A stretch of 64,000 nucleotides of DNA from an uncultured Flavobacteriaceae bacterium (GTDB lineage: Bacteria; Bacteroidota; Bacteroidia; Flavobacteriales; Flavobacteriaceae): the NCBI GenBank assembly GCA_913048115.1, contig CAJWVI010000002.1:50095-114094 (forward strand). The letters run 5' to 3'. Position 1 is the stretch's first letter, and every line of letters begins with the position of its first letter. A model generated the notes under the pieces. It was not told the DNA's origin. It ran no database searches and saw nothing but the letters and a program-made list of their open reading frames with translations. Below are positions 11,880-28,636 of the stretch, piece by piece. The translations under genes were made by a program, and so were the position numbers.

Positions 11880-12199
11880 ATTAAATGGAGTGTTTAAAAT
11901 TAAATTTAGTCTATTAATATTTACGAATACTACTTTTTAAAGACAAACTCTAGTGATCTCAACAAAAAAAACCAACCAAAGTATTTTGGCTCATTACCAC
12001 AGTAGCGTTCTTATCGAATACAGGTGTAGTTGTTCCGTTTATTGCATCTGCTTTTATGCAACAAGTACTGCTTTTGTTATTATTAATAACGGTATTAGAA
12101 TTACAAGGGTACTAGATTATAGCTGCAAAAGAGCTAGGCGTTTAAACAATTGGTTAAGGTATATAAACTAAAAAAAAATGAAGGCCAGGTACCCAGCAA

Positions 12200-13387: not shown

Positions 13388-13927
13388 TTAAAGAAAAGAA
13401 AAACCAACTGCCAAAGTGAATACAGAGTTCCTACCCCCAAAATCACTTACAATATCAGTGAAACCAAAGTTATACCTTCCATCAACACGCAACCCTAAAG
13501 GTAAATCATAGCCTAAACCAATAATTCCTGAAATGTCAGAACTTTCGGCTTCAAGAATTTCACTATCTAAATTTTTAATGCTATCCTCAACCAATATCCC
13601 AAATTGTGGTCCTGCTTGAACATTAAACTTACCCAAAACATAGTATTTAAAAACAACAGGAACATTTACATAGGTTAAATCAAATTTTCCTACGTTAAAA
13701 TCTGCACCTTGTTGAGAGTATAACACATCTACTTGGATTGCAGTTTTTTCACCAAGCTTCATTCTAGCAAAAACACCTGCCTGAATACCCGTTTTACTAG
13801 ATGGCCCATTTTCAGCATCACTTATGGTTGCAAAATTAGACCCAAGTTTAATACCAAGATCAATCTCCTGTGAAAATACTGAAGTGCTAATAAAAAAAAA
13901 GATTACTAATATTGCTGCCTTTTTCAA
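13388..13927 (-). CDS. Porin/PorT-like outer-membrane beta-barrel protein
   Basis: TTG start; signal peptide; LGIKLGSNF, YVNVPVVFKYY, QAGPQFG, RYNFG; terminal GFSFL. Confidence 0.88.
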   Translation of the reverse strand: MKKAAILVIFFFISTSVFSQEIDLGIKLGSNFATISDAENGPSSKTGIQAGVFARMKLGEKTAIQVDVLYSQQGADFNVGKFDLTYVNVPVVFKYYVLGKFNVQAGPQFGILVEDSIKNLDSEILEAESSDISGIIGLGYDLPLGLRVDGRYNFGFTDIVSDFGGRNSVFTLAVGFSFL

Positions 13928-16536: not shown

Positions 16537-16704
16537 CGCCCTTTTGTGACTTCTACAATGCTAGTAGGGTAGAATTTTTCTGAAATATAAGAATTCTAAA
16601 AAAATAGTAGGCACAATGGCTTACCACTCCTAAGAAAGAGGAAACAATAAAATTTCAGAAAAAAAAATTTTAATACACAGTTGGTAATTAGAGTGTGTAT
16701 TTTT

Positions 16705-20487: not shown

Positions 20488-20560
20488 AAAACAGGTTCCT
20501 TACAAGGTCTAAAGATGCCATTATTTTTAAGAATATACTTTTACGAACAAAAAAAAATTG

Positions 20561-22085: not shown

Positions 22086-22619
22086 ATGCGCATTATTTCA
22101 GGAATACATAAAGGAAAACGCCTCATGGCACCAAAATCTTTACCGGTTCGTCCTACTACAGATTTTGCTAAAGAGGGCTTGTTTAACATTTTAAACCATA
22201 GATGGATGTTTCAGGACATTTCATTACTAGATTTATTTTCTGGTACTGGAAACATAAGCTATGAATTTGCCTCAAGAGGCTGTAAGGATATTACTGCATT
22301 AGACAGCCATTTTGGTTGTGTGAAGTATATCTCTAAGATTTCTGAGGAGCTACACTATAATATCCATGCCATAAAAGGTGATGTCTTTAAGTATACTAAA
22401 ATGCCTTCTAGATCTTTTGATATCATTTTTGCAGATCCTCCTTATGATTTCACTCCAGAACAATTAGCGTCTTTGATTAGTGAATCTTTTAAAAATGGAC
22501 TTATTTCAAAAGAGGGAACATTTATACTAGAGCACTCAAAACATACAGATGTATCTGGCTTTGAACGTTTTTCTGAGTCGAGAAGATATGGCGGCTCTGT
22601 CTTTAGTTTTTTTGAATAA
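22086..22619 (+). CDS. rsmD: 16S rRNA (guanine966-N2) methyltransferase
   Basis: MRIISGIHKGK, VRPTTD, LDLFSGTGNIS, IFADPPY. Confidence 0.93.
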   Translation: MRIISGIHKGKRLMAPKSLPVRPTTDFAKEGLFNILNHRWMFQDISLLDLFSGTGNISYEFASRGCKDITALDSHFGCVKYISKISEELHYNIHAIKGDVFKYTKMPSRSFDIIFADPPYDFTPEQLASLISESFKNGLISKEGTFILEHSKHTDVSGFERFSESRRYGGSVFSFFE

Positions 22620-23116: not shown

Positions 23117-24964
23117 ATGGAACCATTTATTGTATCGGCAAGAAAGTACAGACCCACAACATTTAAAGATGTTGTAGGGCAACAAGCGATTACCAATACT
23201 CTAGAGAATGCAATACAGAACGATCATCTAGCACAAGCGCTATTATTTACAGGCCCAAGAGGGGTTGGAAAAACTACCTGCGCACGTATTCTAGCAAAGA
23301 AAATAAACCAAGATGGCAACCATAAAGAAGATGAAGATTTTGCTTTCAATATTTTTGAACTTGATGCTGCTTCTAACAATTCTGTAGATGATATACGTAA
23401 CCTAATTGACCAAGTTCGTATCCCTCCCCAAGTAGGGCAGTATAAAGTCTATATTATAGATGAGGTGCACATGCTTTCTTCTGCTGCATTTAATGCTTTT
23501 TTAAAAACACTTGAAGAGCCACCAAAGCATGCTATTTTCATTCTAGCAACTACAGAGAAACACAAAATTATACCTACCATTTTATCACGGTGTCAAATAT
23601 TTGATTTTAAGCGTATAACAGTACAAGATATTAAAGGCCATTTAGCATCTGTAGCCCTTCAAGAAAACATTACTGCACAAGATGATGCGTTGCATGTTAT
23701 TGCTCAAAAAGCAGACGGGGCCCTTAGAGATGCACTCTCTATTTTTGATAGAGTTGTCAGTTTTTCTGGCGCTAATCTAAGCCGGGAGGCCGTTACTGAA
23801 AATCTAAATGTATTAGACTACACGTATTATTTTAGCATCACAGACCTACTTTTACACAATAACATTCCACAAGTATTACTAGCCTACAATGATATTTTAA
23901 GCAAAGGTTTTGATGGTCATCATTTCATCATGGGTCTCGCCTCTCACTTTAGAGATTTATTAGTTTGCAAAAATCAAGAAACCATATCCTTACTTGAAGT
24001 AGGTGAGCAAGTAAAGAAAATGTACTTAGAGCAATCACAGCTAACTACACTTCCTTTTTTAATATCTGGAATAGACATTGCTAACTCTTGCGATCTAAAA
24101 TTTAAAACTAGCCGAAACCAAAGACTTTTAGTTGAATTGTGCTTAATGCAATTGACATCTCTCACTGCGCAGGGAGAAAAAAAAAACTCCAATAGTCTAG
24201 AAAAACGTTTTGTACTACCCCCTTCTCACTTTAATGATGTAGCTGTCTCTGTTTCAGAAAAATTAGACACTCACCAAGAAATTAAGACCATCTCCGTTAT
24301 AGACGAGCAAAAAAATAATGTAATTAGCTCAGATAATAGTACCGCTAGCTCTTTAGTAGAAATTCAAAAAGACACTACGCAAGCTAAAGAAACAATCCAT
24401 GACATGCTGGTTGATCAAAATAGCACGCAAGCTAGCATTGAAAAACAAATAGAAACTCCAAAAAAAGTTGAACAAGTTGCCATTGCAGATGTTGCCCCTT
24501 CTAAGAAAAGAGTTTCTGCTTTATCTTTAAAAAGCATTCAAAAAAAGCAAGAACTTGCCAAGGAGATCAACTCTAAAACTCCAGATAAAGAAAACCTACC
24601 CACAGAGATATTTACAGAGCAGCAAATGATTGCTCACTGGAATGAATATACAGAAATCTTGAAAAGTCAAGGGAAGTACAACTTCTTGTCTCATCTTACC
24701 ATGAACGTTCCAAAATTAATTGATGGAATGATTCATCTTGTATTTCCTAATGAAACTATAAAACTAGAGGTAGAACGAGATAAGTTTGACTTATTGAAAC
24801 ATTTAAGAAAAGAACTTCAAAATTATAATGTTGATCTCGTCATTGAAGTAAATGAAACCCAAGTGAAACGCTATGCCTATACCTCAAAAGAGAAATATGA
24901 AAAGCTGCTCGAAAAAAACCCTAATCTAGGAGAATTAAGAAAAGCATTTGAGCTAGATATCTAA
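23117..24964 (+). CDS. dnaX: DNA polymerase III subunit gamma/tau
   Basis: ARKYRP, GPRGVGKTT, ELDAASNN, IIDEVHML, LEEPP, SRCQ; internal A10 run at 24177-24186. Confidence 0.97.
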   Translation: MEPFIVSARKYRPTTFKDVVGQQAITNTLENAIQNDHLAQALLFTGPRGVGKTTCARILAKKINQDGNHKEDEDFAFNIFELDAASNNSVDDIRNLIDQVRIPPQVGQYKVYIIDEVHMLSSAAFNAFLKTLEEPPKHAIFILATTEKHKIIPTILSRCQIFDFKRITVQDIKGHLASVALQENITAQDDALHVIAQKADGALRDALSIFDRVVSFSGANLSREAVTENLNVLDYTYYFSITDLLLHNNIPQVLLAYNDILSKGFDGHHFIMGLASHFRDLLVCKNQETISLLEVGEQVKKMYLEQSQLTTLPFLISGIDIANSCDLKFKTSRNQRLLVELCLMQLTSLTAQGEKKNSNSLEKRFVLPPSHFNDVAVSVSEKLDTHQEIKTISVIDEQKNNVISSDNSTASSLVEIQKDTTQAKETIHDMLVDQNSTQASIEKQIETPKKVEQVAIADVAPSKKRVSALSLKSIQKKQELAKEINSKTPDKENLPTEIFTEQQMIAHWNEYTEILKSQGKYNFLSHLTMNVPKLIDGMIHLVFPNETIKLEVERDKFDLLKHLRKELQNYNVDLVIEVNETQVKRYAYTSKEKYEKLLEKNPNLGELRKAFELDI

Positions 24965-24973
24965 TCAATTATT

Positions 24974-25585
24974 ATGAAATTAAAACAGGAAAATCCAATA
25001 AAAATGCTGGGGTTAAAATTACCTACAGATCCACGTTGGGTAGCTATTGTTGAGAAGAATATTGAAGAAATATTGACAGATCACGCCTATTGTGAACAAA
25101 AAGCAACCTCTACAGCTATTTCATTTATTGTTTCTTTTCCTGAATACACAGATTTGGTTCAAGAAATGGTTGCCCTGGTAAAAGAAGAAATAAGTCATTT
25201 TAAATTAGTGCATGATAAAATCATAGCGCGGGGCTGGACCCTTGGACGCGATCGTAAAGATGAATATGTCCTAGCTATTTTAAAATTTTTCCCTAAAGGT
25301 GGTAGTCGCACCACCCAACTAGTTCACAGACTTCTATACGCTGCACTTATTGAAGCAAGAAGTTGTGAGCGTTTTAGGCTACTAAGTGAAGAACTTGAGG
25401 ATCCAGAGTTGGCAGATTTTTATTACAAACTCATGGTTAGCGAAGCAAATCATTACACCATGTTTTTAAGCTTTGCAAGACAGTATGGAGACCGTAAAGA
25501 AGTAGACAGTAAGTGGCAGGATTTACTAGCTTTTGAGGCAGAAGTCATGAAAAACTTAAGTAAAAATGAAAGCATTCATGGCTAA
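24974..25585 (+). CDS. miaE: tRNA-(ms2io6A) hydroxylase
   Basis: DHAYCEQKA, EEISHF, ALIEARSCERF, SEANH di-iron motifs; start may be 25004. Confidence 0.9.
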   Translation: MKLKQENPIKMLGLKLPTDPRWVAIVEKNIEEILTDHAYCEQKATSTAISFIVSFPEYTDLVQEMVALVKEEISHFKLVHDKIIARGWTLGRDRKDEYVLAILKFFPKGGSRTTQLVHRLLYAALIEARSCERFRLLSEELEDPELADFYYKLMVSEANHYTMFLSFARQYGDRKEVDSKWQDLLAFEAEVMKNLSKNESIHG

Positions 25586-25632: not shown

Positions 25633-26544
25633 TTAACTCTTTTTAAATTCTTTAGACTTTCGCTCGTTGTAGAGTTGCTTTACAATACCATCTGCAAGAC
25701 CAATTTTAGGAACATACATGTTTTTTGCTTTCGCCCATTTCATGGCTGATAGATATATACGGGTAGCTGGAATTATAACATCGGCCCTATCTGGATTCAT
25801 TTTCAATTCAAATACGCGTTCATTATAGCTATACTTTTTAATCTTTTCGTAAAAATTAGACATAAACAAATAACTTAATGGCTGCCCAACTTTCTTTTCA
25901 CTAAAGCTATGTATGCTATTAATGTTACCGCCAGAACCTATTACATGTACTTTTGAATATGCTTTTGTATTGTATGTTACCCACTCTTTTATCTCATCCC
26001 AGATAGTGGCGCTAACCATATCGTTAATAATACGCACAGTACCCAATTTAAAAGATTGAGAAGCTATGTTTATACCGTTTGCAAATACAGTAAGCTCGGT
26101 ACTACCTCCTCCTACATCTACATATAAAAAAACTTTATCGTCACTTATAAGCTGTTTTAAATGTGTAGAAGCAATAATAGCTGCCTCATCATTACCATCA
26201 ATAATTTGGATGTTAATTCCTGTAGCCACTTTTAGTTTTGCAACTATTTCTTTTCCATTTGCGGCCTCACGCATAGCTGATGTTGCACAAGCTCTATAAG
26301 CAACAACGTTATGGGTTTTAATAAGTAATGAAAAAGCCTGCATGGCATCTAACAATCTTTGATAATTGACCTGTGTAATATTACCTTCTAAGAAAACATC
26401 TGCACCTAGCCTAATAGGCAAACGCACCAAAGAGGTTTTTTTAAACTGTGTAGCAAAACCTTCCTTCTCAATTACAGTGGTAATGAGTAAACGAATAGCA
26501 TTAGAGCCTATATCTATAGCGGCATATTTATCTATGTGTAACAA
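25633..26544 (-). CDS. ppx: Ppx/GppA exopolyphosphatase
   Basis: AAIDIGSNAIR, ATSAMREAANG, DVGGGSTE, RADVIIPA; likely TTG start at 26544. Confidence 0.9.
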   Translation of the reverse strand: MLHIDKYAAIDIGSNAIRLLITTVIEKEGFATQFKKTSLVRLPIRLGADVFLEGNITQVNYQRLLDAMQAFSLLIKTHNVVAYRACATSAMREAANGKEIVAKLKVATGINIQIIDGNDEAAIIASTHLKQLISDDKVFLYVDVGGGSTELTVFANGINIASQSFKLGTVRIINDMVSATIWDEIKEWVTYNTKAYSKVHVIGSGGNINSIHSFSEKKVGQPLSYLFMSNFYEKIKKYSYNERVFELKMNPDRADVIIPATRIYLSAMKWAKAKNMYVPKIGLADGIVKQLYNERKSKEFKKS

Positions 26545-26551
26545 ATTATTT

Positions 26552-28636
26552 TTATAGTTTATTTTTATAGTAATCATACAATGCAAACTGCGATCGTACT
26601 TTTGGATTGTTATCTATTTTGTATTGATTGTCTTGTTTTTCTGAAATATGACGTGCCTTCACGTTATCACTCCAAGATATTGCAAAGGTATCTAACAACT
26701 CTTGTTTAATAGTTTGATCATAGATTGGACAAGATACTTCTACTCTATTATCTAAATTTCTACGCATTAAATCTGCAGAAGATATAAAGATCTTTGGAGC
26801 TCCATCGTTCTCAAAAATAAAAAGGCGAGGATGCTCTAGAAACTTATCTATAACGCTTATTACTTCAATATTTTCGCTCATTGCTTTAACTCCTGGAATC
26901 AAACAACAAATACCTCTTATGATAAGTTGCACCTTTACACCAGCTCTACTGGCAGCATACAATCTATCAATTAGTCTATTGTCAGACAAGCTATTGAGTT
27001 TTAATTTAATACCACTTTTCTTGCCTTGAATAGTGTTTAAAATTTCAGCTTCTATTAGGGCATAAATAGCACTTCTAGTGTAATGAGGAGAAACTATTAA
27101 ATGTCTATACTCTTTTACTTTATAATTTACTTCAAAAAAGTCAAATACTCTATTGAGCTCTTTCCCTATTTTTTGGTTGGCAGTAAACAAAGTATAATCT
27201 GTATAAATTCTTGCCGTAGACTCATTAAAATTCCCTGTACTTATAAAAGAATACCGCTTCAATTTCCCATCTTCCTCACGCTCAACGACGCATATTTTAC
27301 AATGTACCTTTAGACCTGCTACACCAAAAATAAGTTTTACACCCTCACTTTGCATTTGCTCTGCATAGTAGATATTTGCTTCCTCATCAAAGCGTGCCTG
27401 TAACTCTATTTGAACGGTGACTTCCTTTCCGTTCTTAGCAGCATTAATTAAACTACTGGCAATACGAGATACTTCTGCCAGTCTGTAAATAGTAATCTTT
27501 ATTGTTTTTACGGTAGGATCTAGGGCTGCTTCACGAAGAAACTTAACAATGTATGAAAAGCTCTGGTAGGGCGCATATAATAAATAATCTTTTTTAGCTA
27601 CTTTGTCTAGTATGCTTCCTACCAAGTTTAATCCAGGAATAGGCAATGGAACAATCTTTTCATATTGTAAGTCTAGACGACCTAAACTTGGAAACTTAAT
27701 ATAATCTCTCCGATTGTGATACTTACCACCAGGGTTAATACTATCTGAGTTTTTTATTCCCATTTTATCCATCAAAAAGGCCAATGTTTCATCGTCTATA
27801 GTATTGTCATAGACAAGACGAACGGGATCTCCATCACTTCTGTTTTTTACAGATTTAGAAATTTTATCAATAAAACTTTTACTTAGGTCACTTTCTATAT
27901 CCAATGCTGCATCACGAGTGATCTTAATCATGTGTGCCGAAATATGATCATACTTAAAAATACTAAATATTTGATGTAATGAATATCGTATTAAATCATC
28001 TAGAATAATTATGTACTTCTTTCCATCTTGAGACGGCAATTCTACAAATCGTTCAACATTTTTGGGTATTTCAATAAGGGCATAATTATTTTTTGAAGCA
28101 AAAGAAGTGTCACCCTTAGCCATTTCCATTTTTATGGCTAAATACGCGGCGTTATCTTTTAAAGAAGGAAACCTCTTAAGCTCCCCAATCATAATAACAA
28201 CCATAGCTGGGCTTACATTTTGTATGAAATAATCTGCGATATATTCAGATTGAGACTTGGACACTTCTGTCTCATCAATCATAAAAATATTTTCTTTTTT
28301 AAGCTCCTTTTTGATACTACTCAAAATACCCAAGCTCGTTTTTTGTTGTTTGATAACTGTTTTTGTAATTATCTCCATCAACTCTGAGGCTGGTATACCT
28401 CCTAAAAAACTACGCCCTGCTTTACCAGCTGCGGCAATACGTTTAATGGTAGCGTATCTAACTTTAAAAAATTCATCTAGGTTATTAGAGAAAATACCTA
28501 TAAACCTCAATCTTTCAAGTAGCGGAGTGGTCTTGTCTTCTGCCTCTTGTAATACACGTGCATTAAACTGTAACCAACTTAATTCACGGTTAAAGTACTT
28601 ATTTTCAAGAGGGGTTTTATTTAAAGGTGGCGTCAT
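26552..28636 (-). CDS. ppk1: Polyphosphate kinase 1
   Basis: NRELSWLQFNARVL, SNNLDEFF, ELQARFDEEAN, HCK, STGNFNE, FLEHPR, RNLDNRVE. Confidence 0.97.
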   Translation of the reverse strand: MTPPLNKTPLENKYFNRELSWLQFNARVLQEAEDKTTPLLERLRFIGIFSNNLDEFFKVRYATIKRIAAAGKAGRSFLGGIPASELMEIITKTVIKQQKTSLGILSSIKKELKKENIFMIDETEVSKSQSEYIADYFIQNVSPAMVVIMIGELKRFPSLKDNAAYLAIKMEMAKGDTSFASKNNYALIEIPKNVERFVELPSQDGKKYIIILDDLIRYSLHQIFSIFKYDHISAHMIKITRDAALDIESDLSKSFIDKISKSVKNRSDGDPVRLVYDNTIDDETLAFLMDKMGIKNSDSINPGGKYHNRRDYIKFPSLGRLDLQYEKIVPLPIPGLNLVGSILDKVAKKDYLLYAPYQSFSYIVKFLREAALDPTVKTIKITIYRLAEVSRIASSLINAAKNGKEVTVQIELQARFDEEANIYYAEQMQSEGVKLIFGVAGLKVHCKICVVEREEDGKLKRYSFISTGNFNESTARIYTDYTLFTANQKIGKELNRVFDFFEVNYKVKEYRHLIVSPHYTRSAIYALIEAEILNTIQGKKSGIKLKLNSLSDNRLIDRLYAASRAGVKVQLIIRGICCLIPGVKAMSENIEVISVIDKFLEHPRLFIFENDGAPKIFISSADLMRRNLDNRVEVSCPIYDQTIKQELLDTFAISWSDNVKARHISEKQDNQYKIDNNPKVRSQFALYDYYKNKL

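Follow-up and report, generated by a model that had tools for sequence, protein, structure and literature searches.

DnaX sets the make-up of the clamp loader in the bacterial replicase. The means by which bacteria produce gamma in addition to tau, and the reason for it, have long been in question. In E. coli, the C-terminal part of tau binds DnaB and the Pol III alpha subunit, and tau links the clamp loader with the polymerase and the helicase. Gamma of E. coli arises through -1 ribosomal frameshifting at A_AAA_AAG, with a Shine-Dalgarno (SD) sequence 10 nt upstream and a stem-loop on the 3' side. In this study, the dnaX gene of an uncultured Flavobacteriaceae bacterium was analysed within a stretch of 64,000 nt (contig CAJWVI010000002.1, positions 50,095 to 114,094), which is called the window hereafter. 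The gene contains a run of ten A's. Judged from its conservation and surroundings across the phylum, this run is probably a programmed transcriptional slippage site of the Thermus type, from which both tau and gamma would be produced.

In Thermus thermophilus, gamma is made by transcriptional slippage on a run of nine A's (Larsen et al. 2000 PNAS 97:1683, as recounted in PMC1088944 and PMC5009743). The dnaX gene of the window resembles this system in several respects. Tau is a single zero-frame open reading frame (ORF) in both genes and the run is on the sense strand (A9 in Thermus, A10 here). GGGAG and then A's are found just 5' of the run in both. Stops are near in both of the other frames, so that any slip by a number that is not a multiple of three yields gamma. 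On the other hand, the run of the window is at the end of domain III, at residue 354 of 615, whereas the Thermus run is located much further along the gene (PMC1088944). The present host is AT-rich and mesophilic, and slippage at its site is a prediction. In addition, relatives of the class Bacteroidia have a hairpin abutting the run, which is not significant in a Thermus locus (T. parvatiensis).

Another comparable group of dnaX genes was reported by Antonov et al. 2013 (PMC3711429, Suppl. Fig. S3). They form the GeneTack dnaX cluster and consist of two ORFs with an A10 run, so that tau requires recoding. Flavobacterium johnsoniae, F. psychrophilum, Cytophaga hutchinsonii, Capnocytophaga ochracea, several Chlorobi and Coraliomargarita are presented in the figure. 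The phylum, the A10 run and its place in dnaX are common to the window, and six genomes of our samples (G007-G012) share the exact layout. In contrast, tau is in frame in the window, and the slipped product is therefore gamma. The in-frame layout is undetectable by a frameshift-gene finder such as GeneTack and is missing from the 2013 list. The suspicion in the original prediction, an earlier reading of the window from its letters alone, that similar sites may have been reported in Bacteroidota was thus correct. The A10 site is already published for the phylum, and the in-frame layout of the window is conceptually that of Thermus.

Another system is relevant to the hairpin. In IS630 of Roseiflexus, a stem-loop of the nascent RNA stimulates slippage at a 10-nt T5C5 motif (Penno et al. 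2015, as presented in PMC5009743, Fig. 18), and this hairpin is the only described stimulator of transcriptional slippage (PMC5009743). A hairpin 5'-adjacent to a 10-nt slippage motif and a terminator-like geometry are common to both systems. However, the T5C5 heteropolymer is wholly dependent on its hairpin, whereas a homopolymeric A10 can slip unaided. Unlike the IS630 transposase, dnaX is an essential chromosomal gene, and the hairpin of the window itself is weak and its role is putative. As for E. coli, the gene, an A-rich shift site and a gamma that corresponds to tau cut after the clamp-loader core are shared with the window. The window differs in having neither a heptamer ending with AAG nor a 3' stem-loop. 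Its SD-like sequence abuts the run and SD pairing is unused in this group. Compared with the E. coli protein, the predicted gamma is cut about 70 residues earlier.

The sequence at 24170-24200 is CAGGGAGAAAAAAAAAACTCCAATAGTCTAG. The run is read as the codons GAA AAA AAA AAC, which correspond to E354, K355, K356 and N357 (codons 354-357 of 615), exactly as claimed in the original prediction. The identity of DnaX was assigned by the Pfam families DNA_pol3_delta2 (2.3e-34), AAA and DNAX_ATPase_lid. Its residues 5-272 match residues 4-283 of E. coli gamma/tau in the Protein Data Bank (PDB). Because of this alignment, residue 354 is placed near the end of domain III, at about the position where crystallised gamma constructs (368-373 aa) stop. 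The earlier placement of the run just past the clamp-loader core is in agreement with these matches. The part comprising domains I-III shows 46-90% identity across the phylum. The C-terminal region of tau is kept in the relatives as the last 250-280 aa, in frame in some of them and shifted in others.

The products of transcripts with different numbers of A's were simulated. The A10 transcript encodes a protein of 615 aa with a mass of 69.7 kDa. The A11 transcript gives a product ending with ...EKKKLQ (359 aa, 40.3 kDa), and the A9 transcript gives one ending with ...EKKTPIV (360 aa, 40.4 kDa). The same three products had been predicted earlier. The A12 and A8 transcripts yield 361 aa and 358 aa, respectively, and the A13 and A7 transcripts yield tau with one lysine more or one lysine less.

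Long A-runs are uncommon but not absent in this genome. The window has a GC content of 35% and carries 34 A7, 16 A8 and four A9 runs and one A10, which is its longest homopolymer, as had been noticed before. The whole assembly of 2.0 Mb contains 18 A/T runs of 10 and one of 11. Within ORFs of at least 150 aa, a sense-strand A10 is found just three times genome-wide, dnaX included. When ORFs were approximated crudely as sense frames of 150 aa or more that start with ATG, the dnaX run was the sole A/T run of at least 9 inside one of them in the window. An A10 by itself is uncommon rather than decisive, and what proves it to be more than chance is its conservation. The identical 615-aa protein, which requires exactly A10, recurs on at least 23 contigs of independent assemblies, and the one contig that was read has the same A10. 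An assembly error was ruled out on these grounds.

The conservation of the run was analysed with two samples. The first consisted of 41 relatives (22 genera, 17 families of the order) and the best 80 loci of the genome collection across Bacteroidota, giving 110 loci. The second was one-per-genus and even across the phylum, with 79 further genera (23 Bacteroidia of other orders and 56 of other classes). A run of A9-A13 is present at the equivalent place in 103 of the 110 dnaX loci, including L092, whose A10 sits about 300 nt further downstream. More than 80% of these runs are A10. The run-bearing loci span Flavobacteriales, Sphingobacteriales, Cytophagales, Chitinophagales and Bacteroidales. 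In the second sample, a run of at least nine A's was found in 53 of the 79 genera, namely 19 of the 23 Bacteroidia of other orders and 34 of the 56 genera of other classes. Hence the conserved A-run expected in relatives, split ORFs included, does exist, and the two-ORF congeners G007-G012 are examples of it. Within the class Bacteroidia the run is near-universal, and elsewhere in the phylum it is common.

The run is kept even at dnaX loci with a GC content of 50-60%. It starts at codon position 1, 2 and 3 in 11, 67 and 24 loci, respectively, and the flanking residues vary. Because the codon phase and the neighbouring residues vary while the run stays, also in GC-rich loci, the comparison indicates that selection is on the nucleotide run rather than on the Lys-Lys-Lys peptide. 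The run is absent in seven of the 110 loci (L071, L083, L084, L108, L110, L098, and L067), mostly of Bacteroidaceae/Bacteroidales. Roughly 40% of the non-Bacteroidia genera are also without it (L135, L137-L139, L145-L147, and others), and these are mostly GC-rich lineages. In the run-less lineages, tau is one plain ORF. Gamma, if produced there at all, may come from another route such as proteolysis, which is used in Caulobacter.

The frame of tau relative to the run differs between the loci. The layout was scored with simulated transcripts having the templated number of A's, one more or one fewer. In the first sample, 60 loci, the window among them, have tau in the zero frame, 36 require one additional A for tau and five require one A fewer. 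In the second sample, the corresponding numbers are 37, 13, and 1, and two loci fit no single layout. Both layouts occur in the genus of the window. The small-genome species, to which the window belongs, have tau in frame, and the six larger-genome species (G007-G012) have two ORFs. The two-ORF layout, in which the zero frame ends just past the run, is not found in the window but is present in the congeners L013-L018. A single C directly after the run is the sole difference between the window and L015.

The stops after the run are also enriched. In the frames that do not encode tau, the median distance from the run to a stop is 2 codons, versus 8 at control positions of the same genes. Over 99 loci, 95% of these frames reach a stop within 8 codons, versus 50% of the controls. 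The Mann-Whitney p value of the stop enrichment is 7e-35, with no correction for phylogeny.

By analogy with E. coli, tau of Bacteroidota may have the same coupling role in the replicase. In about 40% of the related genomes, species of the same genus included, tau is out of frame and this essential protein depends wholly on the shift. We therefore infer that the shift is efficient in these genomes. If the same holds for the in-frame genomes, considerable amounts of the truncated product are to be expected from them. The efficiency of slippage is probably in the order of tens of percent. An event with an efficiency of about 50% is expected to allow a 'role reversal by one nucleotide' (PMC5009743), and the layouts that swap by one nucleotide match this. 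The occurrence of all three frame layouts implies that slippage is efficient and ancient.

The mechanism of gamma production can be proposed as follows. When RNA polymerase transcribes the T10 template, the whole RNA:DNA hybrid of 9-10 bp would be composed of rA:dT. The nascent RNA could then realign by one or more bases, giving a pool of mRNAs that differ in the number of A's (A9, A10, A11 and others). From the A10 mRNA (or from A7 and A13), normal translation would produce tau of 615 aa. The remaining mRNAs would reach a stop 2-4 codons past the run and produce a gamma of about 40 kDa that has clamp-loader domains I-III only. The run, its place, its nucleotide conservation, the three interchangeable frame layouts and the excess of stops are seen in the sequences themselves. 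We infer from the comparative data that slippage occurs, that it takes place at RNA polymerase and not at the ribosome, and how efficient it is.

The signals of a ribosomal frameshift were searched around the run. No 3' stem-loop was found: the minimum free energy (MFE) of the 84 nt after the run is -5.9 kcal/mol, weaker than that of shuffles (z = +1.26). The positional MFE profile downstream of the run is flat over 95 non-identical loci. A downstream stimulator was rejected on these two results, which bear out the earlier remark that no strong stem-loop is visible there. The run holds the in-phase heptamers A_AAA_AAA and A_AAA_AAC and no A_AAA_AAG. The SD-like AGGGAG ends at 24176, only 1-4 nt from the heptamers, versus about 10 nt upstream for an SD of the E. 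coli type. Furthermore, ribosomes of Bacteroidia ignore the SD, as the 3' tail of 16S rRNA with the anti-SD is sequestered (Naeem et al. 2024, PMC10798248). AGGGAG was therefore rejected as a ribosomal stimulator on its spacing and the anti-SD sequestration. The earlier observation that it abuts the run is right. A role as a ribosomal stimulator is unlikely for the same two reasons, and GGGAG is instead the 3' arm of the upstream hairpin.

Transcriptional slippage is favoured because there is neither a 3' structure nor a use of the SD, and because a run of hybrid length is conserved in any phase with shifts in both directions. A need for shifts in either direction at a single conserved run served Antonov et al. 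2013 (PMC3711429) as the signature for calling transcriptional realignment. The overall comparison supports a gamma/tau recoding site at which slippage of RNA polymerase would be likelier than ribosomal frameshifting of the E. coli type. The preference for RNA polymerase in the original prediction is supported by the phylum-wide run, the three phases and frames, and the stop enrichment.

The strongest competing explanation is translational, although we regard it as unlikely. In this case, the mRNA would be uniformly A10, and ribosomes would shift by -1 or slide on the A-rich codons and stop at the first TAG after the run to give gamma. The run does contain in-phase heptamers of the X_XXY_YYZ type, and E. 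coli dnaX relies on such a heptamer, A_AAA_AAG (PMC5009743). The two-ORF relatives mostly need the -1 direction (36 versus 5). Moreover, an upstream hairpin can modulate frameshifting in other systems (PMC6321510). However, A_AAA_AAC and A_AAA_AAA are far less shifty than A_AAA_AAG in E. coli. No conserved 3' stem-loop is present, AGGGAG is misplaced, and SD pairing is not used by ribosomes of Bacteroidia. What is conserved, whatever the codon phase, is the length of the run, which nearly equals that of the 9-10-bp hybrid in RNA polymerase, and different species need opposite directions of shift. A ribosome decoding the run would hold the abutting hairpin unwound inside it, and such hairpins attenuate -1 frameshifting in the reported cases.

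Several points nevertheless weigh against slippage of RNA polymerase at the run. An A10 in any phase holds an in-frame A_AAA_AAA heptamer, and sliding of E. coli ribosomes on long A stretches, such as lysine codons of poly-A, is on record in the account of PMC4363877. Some or all of the shift could thus be translational. The genome, with a GC content of 36%, carries 41 sense A9 runs in long ORFs, and the host RNA polymerase may be less prone to slippage than that of E. coli. The statistics rest on mononucleotide shuffles and on related sequences. Within the literature that was searched, neither experiments on dnaX of Bacteroidota nor a report of the upstream hairpin were found.

A second alternative assumes no recoding. 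The run would be just the start of a Lys-rich linker in an AT-rich genome, tau would be the only product, and slipped products would be negligible noise. A7-A9 runs are indeed plentiful in the coding sequence of this 36% GC genome, and the run is absent in seven of the 110 loci and in about 40% of the genera of other classes. This explanation is very improbable in view of the exact A10, uninterrupted by AAG, in more than 80% of the loci, GC-rich ones included, and of its variable codon phase. It also fails to explain the stops enriched just past the run in both other frames and the loci, about 40%, in which tau is out of frame at the run and the shift must work. Hardly credible at all is a hypermutable switch at the DNA level, in which replication slippage would toggle the population between tau-in-frame and gamma-in-frame genotypes: the run does range from A9 to A13 among species and the layout flips within a genus, but the same in-frame ORF comes from at least 23 independent contigs, the layout changes within the genus are substitutions or indels beside the run (A10C versus A10, A9G) rather than changes in length alone, and a gamma-only genotype would be without essential tau unless slippage at the level of expression exists anyway.

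In addition to the run, a hairpin immediately upstream of it was identified in Bacteroidia. The 28-nt segment ending at the run (24149-24176 in the window) was used for the hairpin profile. The mean MFE of this segment is -5.65 kcal/mol versus a background of -2.31 kcal/mol (SD of column means 0.48), and the excess over shuffles is -2.72 versus -0.23 kcal/mol. The signal is lost when the segment is moved 3-6 nt upstream (-3.26, then -2.39 kcal/mol). Weighting by 43 clusters whose sequences are unrelated to each other gave -5.85 versus -2.44, and 88% of the clusters beat their own median. The hairpin was replicated in the independent sample of 19 other Bacteroidia genera (-5.38 versus -2.59, median percentile 10%). 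The possibility of a generic feature of A-runs was rejected, since the other 163 runs of at least nine A's in the genome average -1.43 kcal/mol.

The position of the hairpin is strict, but its sequence is not. Of 50 hairpins of -5 kcal/mol or lower, 48 have a gap of 0-3 nt between their last paired base and the first A. The stems are unrelated between orders (CGCTTGTG/CACAAGCG, TTCACTTTCC/GGAAGGTGGA, and CTCTATCA/TGATGGAG). Compensatory changes were seen within Flavobacteriaceae, where pair 9-20 is AU in 12, CG in 10 and GC in 1. In a fixed-register covariation analysis of 39 Flavobacteriaceae-like sequences, 68% of the cells are paired versus 63% in shuffles, and three pairs changed on both sides. 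This support is modest because the register of the hairpin drifts between lineages. A stronger test is given by the positional profile, which needs no fixed register. As a conserved sequence feature of Bacteroidia the hairpin has good support, and its function is putative.

The geometry is that of a hairpin followed by a tract of hybrid length, like an intrinsic terminator with A's replacing the U's. RNA polymerase would meet the hairpin forming just when the hybrid turns into pure rA:dT. The hairpin may then tune slippage through hairpin-stabilised pausing or partial melting of the hybrid, as in Roseiflexus IS630. The mean MFE of the hairpin differs by layout, being -4.5 kcal/mol in loci requiring one more A (n = 36), -6.0 in in-frame loci (n = 57) and -8.5 in loci requiring one A fewer (n = 5). 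The last five are L045, L066, L076, L109, and L026. The hairpin might bias slippage towards deletions, as in Roseiflexus IS630, in what is a tiny sample. As a tentative model, which we hold to be possible but somewhat short of an even chance, dnaX of Bacteroidia would contain a composite terminator-like cassette. It would consist of a hairpin 0-3 nt before A10 and of stops in two frames, and the hairpin would set the frequency and direction of slips and the ratio of tau to gamma.

Other results also bear on the part of the hairpin. The hairpin of the window has only 5 bp and -4.2 kcal/mol, which is the 16th percentile among the 28-nt segments of its own gene, and it belongs to the top 7% among the 163 runs of at least nine A's in the genome. 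Its role in this genome is predicted to be minor at best. The hairpin is not enriched in the 34 run-bearing genera of other classes (-3.44 versus -2.78). The locus of Thermus parvatiensis, fetched by the published site sequence, has no special 28-nt hairpin (32nd percentile). A larger 45-nt fold stops 2 nt before the run of T. parvatiensis and is unremarkable at that GC content. The hairpin is not required for slippage, because no special one exists at the validated Thermus-type site or in the non-Bacteroidia classes. As it is enriched in two samples of Bacteroidia and not in the other run-keeping classes or the Thermus locus, the hairpin seems to have been added, in this class, to a slippery run that is older.

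Because the basic phenomenon has been described before, a single instance of it is only modestly surprising. The dnaX site of the window adds a well-supported predicted example of gamma production. For annotation, apparently 'split' dnaX genes of Bacteroidota are not pseudogenes, and the in-frame ones probably encode two proteins. If the cassette model is true, an efficient slip would let evolution shift tau freely among the three frames, even within a genus. It would also be the first case of hairpin-assisted transcriptional slippage in an essential cellular gene, and class-wide, as it is so far described in one IS element only. Knowledge of slippage signals was called 'very limited' in a 2016 review (PMC5009743), and the conserved upstream hairpin is a testable handle on the tuning of RNA-polymerase slippage. 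The features of the locus are collected in Table 1.

Table 1. Positions of the dnaX features in the window
Feature	Position	Strand	Details and basis
dnaX ORF	23117-24964	+	615 aa, 69.7 kDa; the zero frame is full-length tau; ORF list, Pfam, PDB match
Part common to tau and the predicted gamma	23117-24176	+	Clamp-loader domains I-III, residues 1-353
Weak predicted nascent-RNA hairpin	24159-24176	+	CUCUC 24159-24163, loop ACUGCGCA 24164-24171, GGGAG 24172-24176; folding
A10 slippery run (T10 on the template strand)	24177-24186	+	Predicted site of RNA-polymerase realignment
Tau-specific C-terminal region	24187-24964	+	Linker and C-terminal domains; predicted to be translated only from A10 or A10 +/- 3n transcripts; sequence comparison with relatives
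TAG ending the product of one more A (or of a -1 ribosomal shift)	24193-24195	+	Simulated translation
TAG ending the product of one A fewer (or of a +1 shift)	24198-24200	+	Simulated translation

The other two sense A10 runs of the genome are outside the window, at C2:8272 of G000 on the forward strand and on the reverse strand of C52 (reverse-complement coordinate 4512). One of the ORFs has 238 aa, with the run at codon 184, and the other has 284 aa, with the run at codon 26. The A9 runs of the window are all on the forward strand, at 12170-12178, 13892-13900, 16659-16667, and 20549-20557. The neighbours of dnaX are housekeeping genes. A methyltransferase of the Cons_hypoth95 family (RsmD-like) is encoded at 22086-22619, MiaE at 24974-25585 and a Ppx/GppA phosphatase on the reverse strand at 25633-26586. 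MiaE belongs to a tRNA hydroxylase family, and 9 nt separate the dnaX stop from its start.

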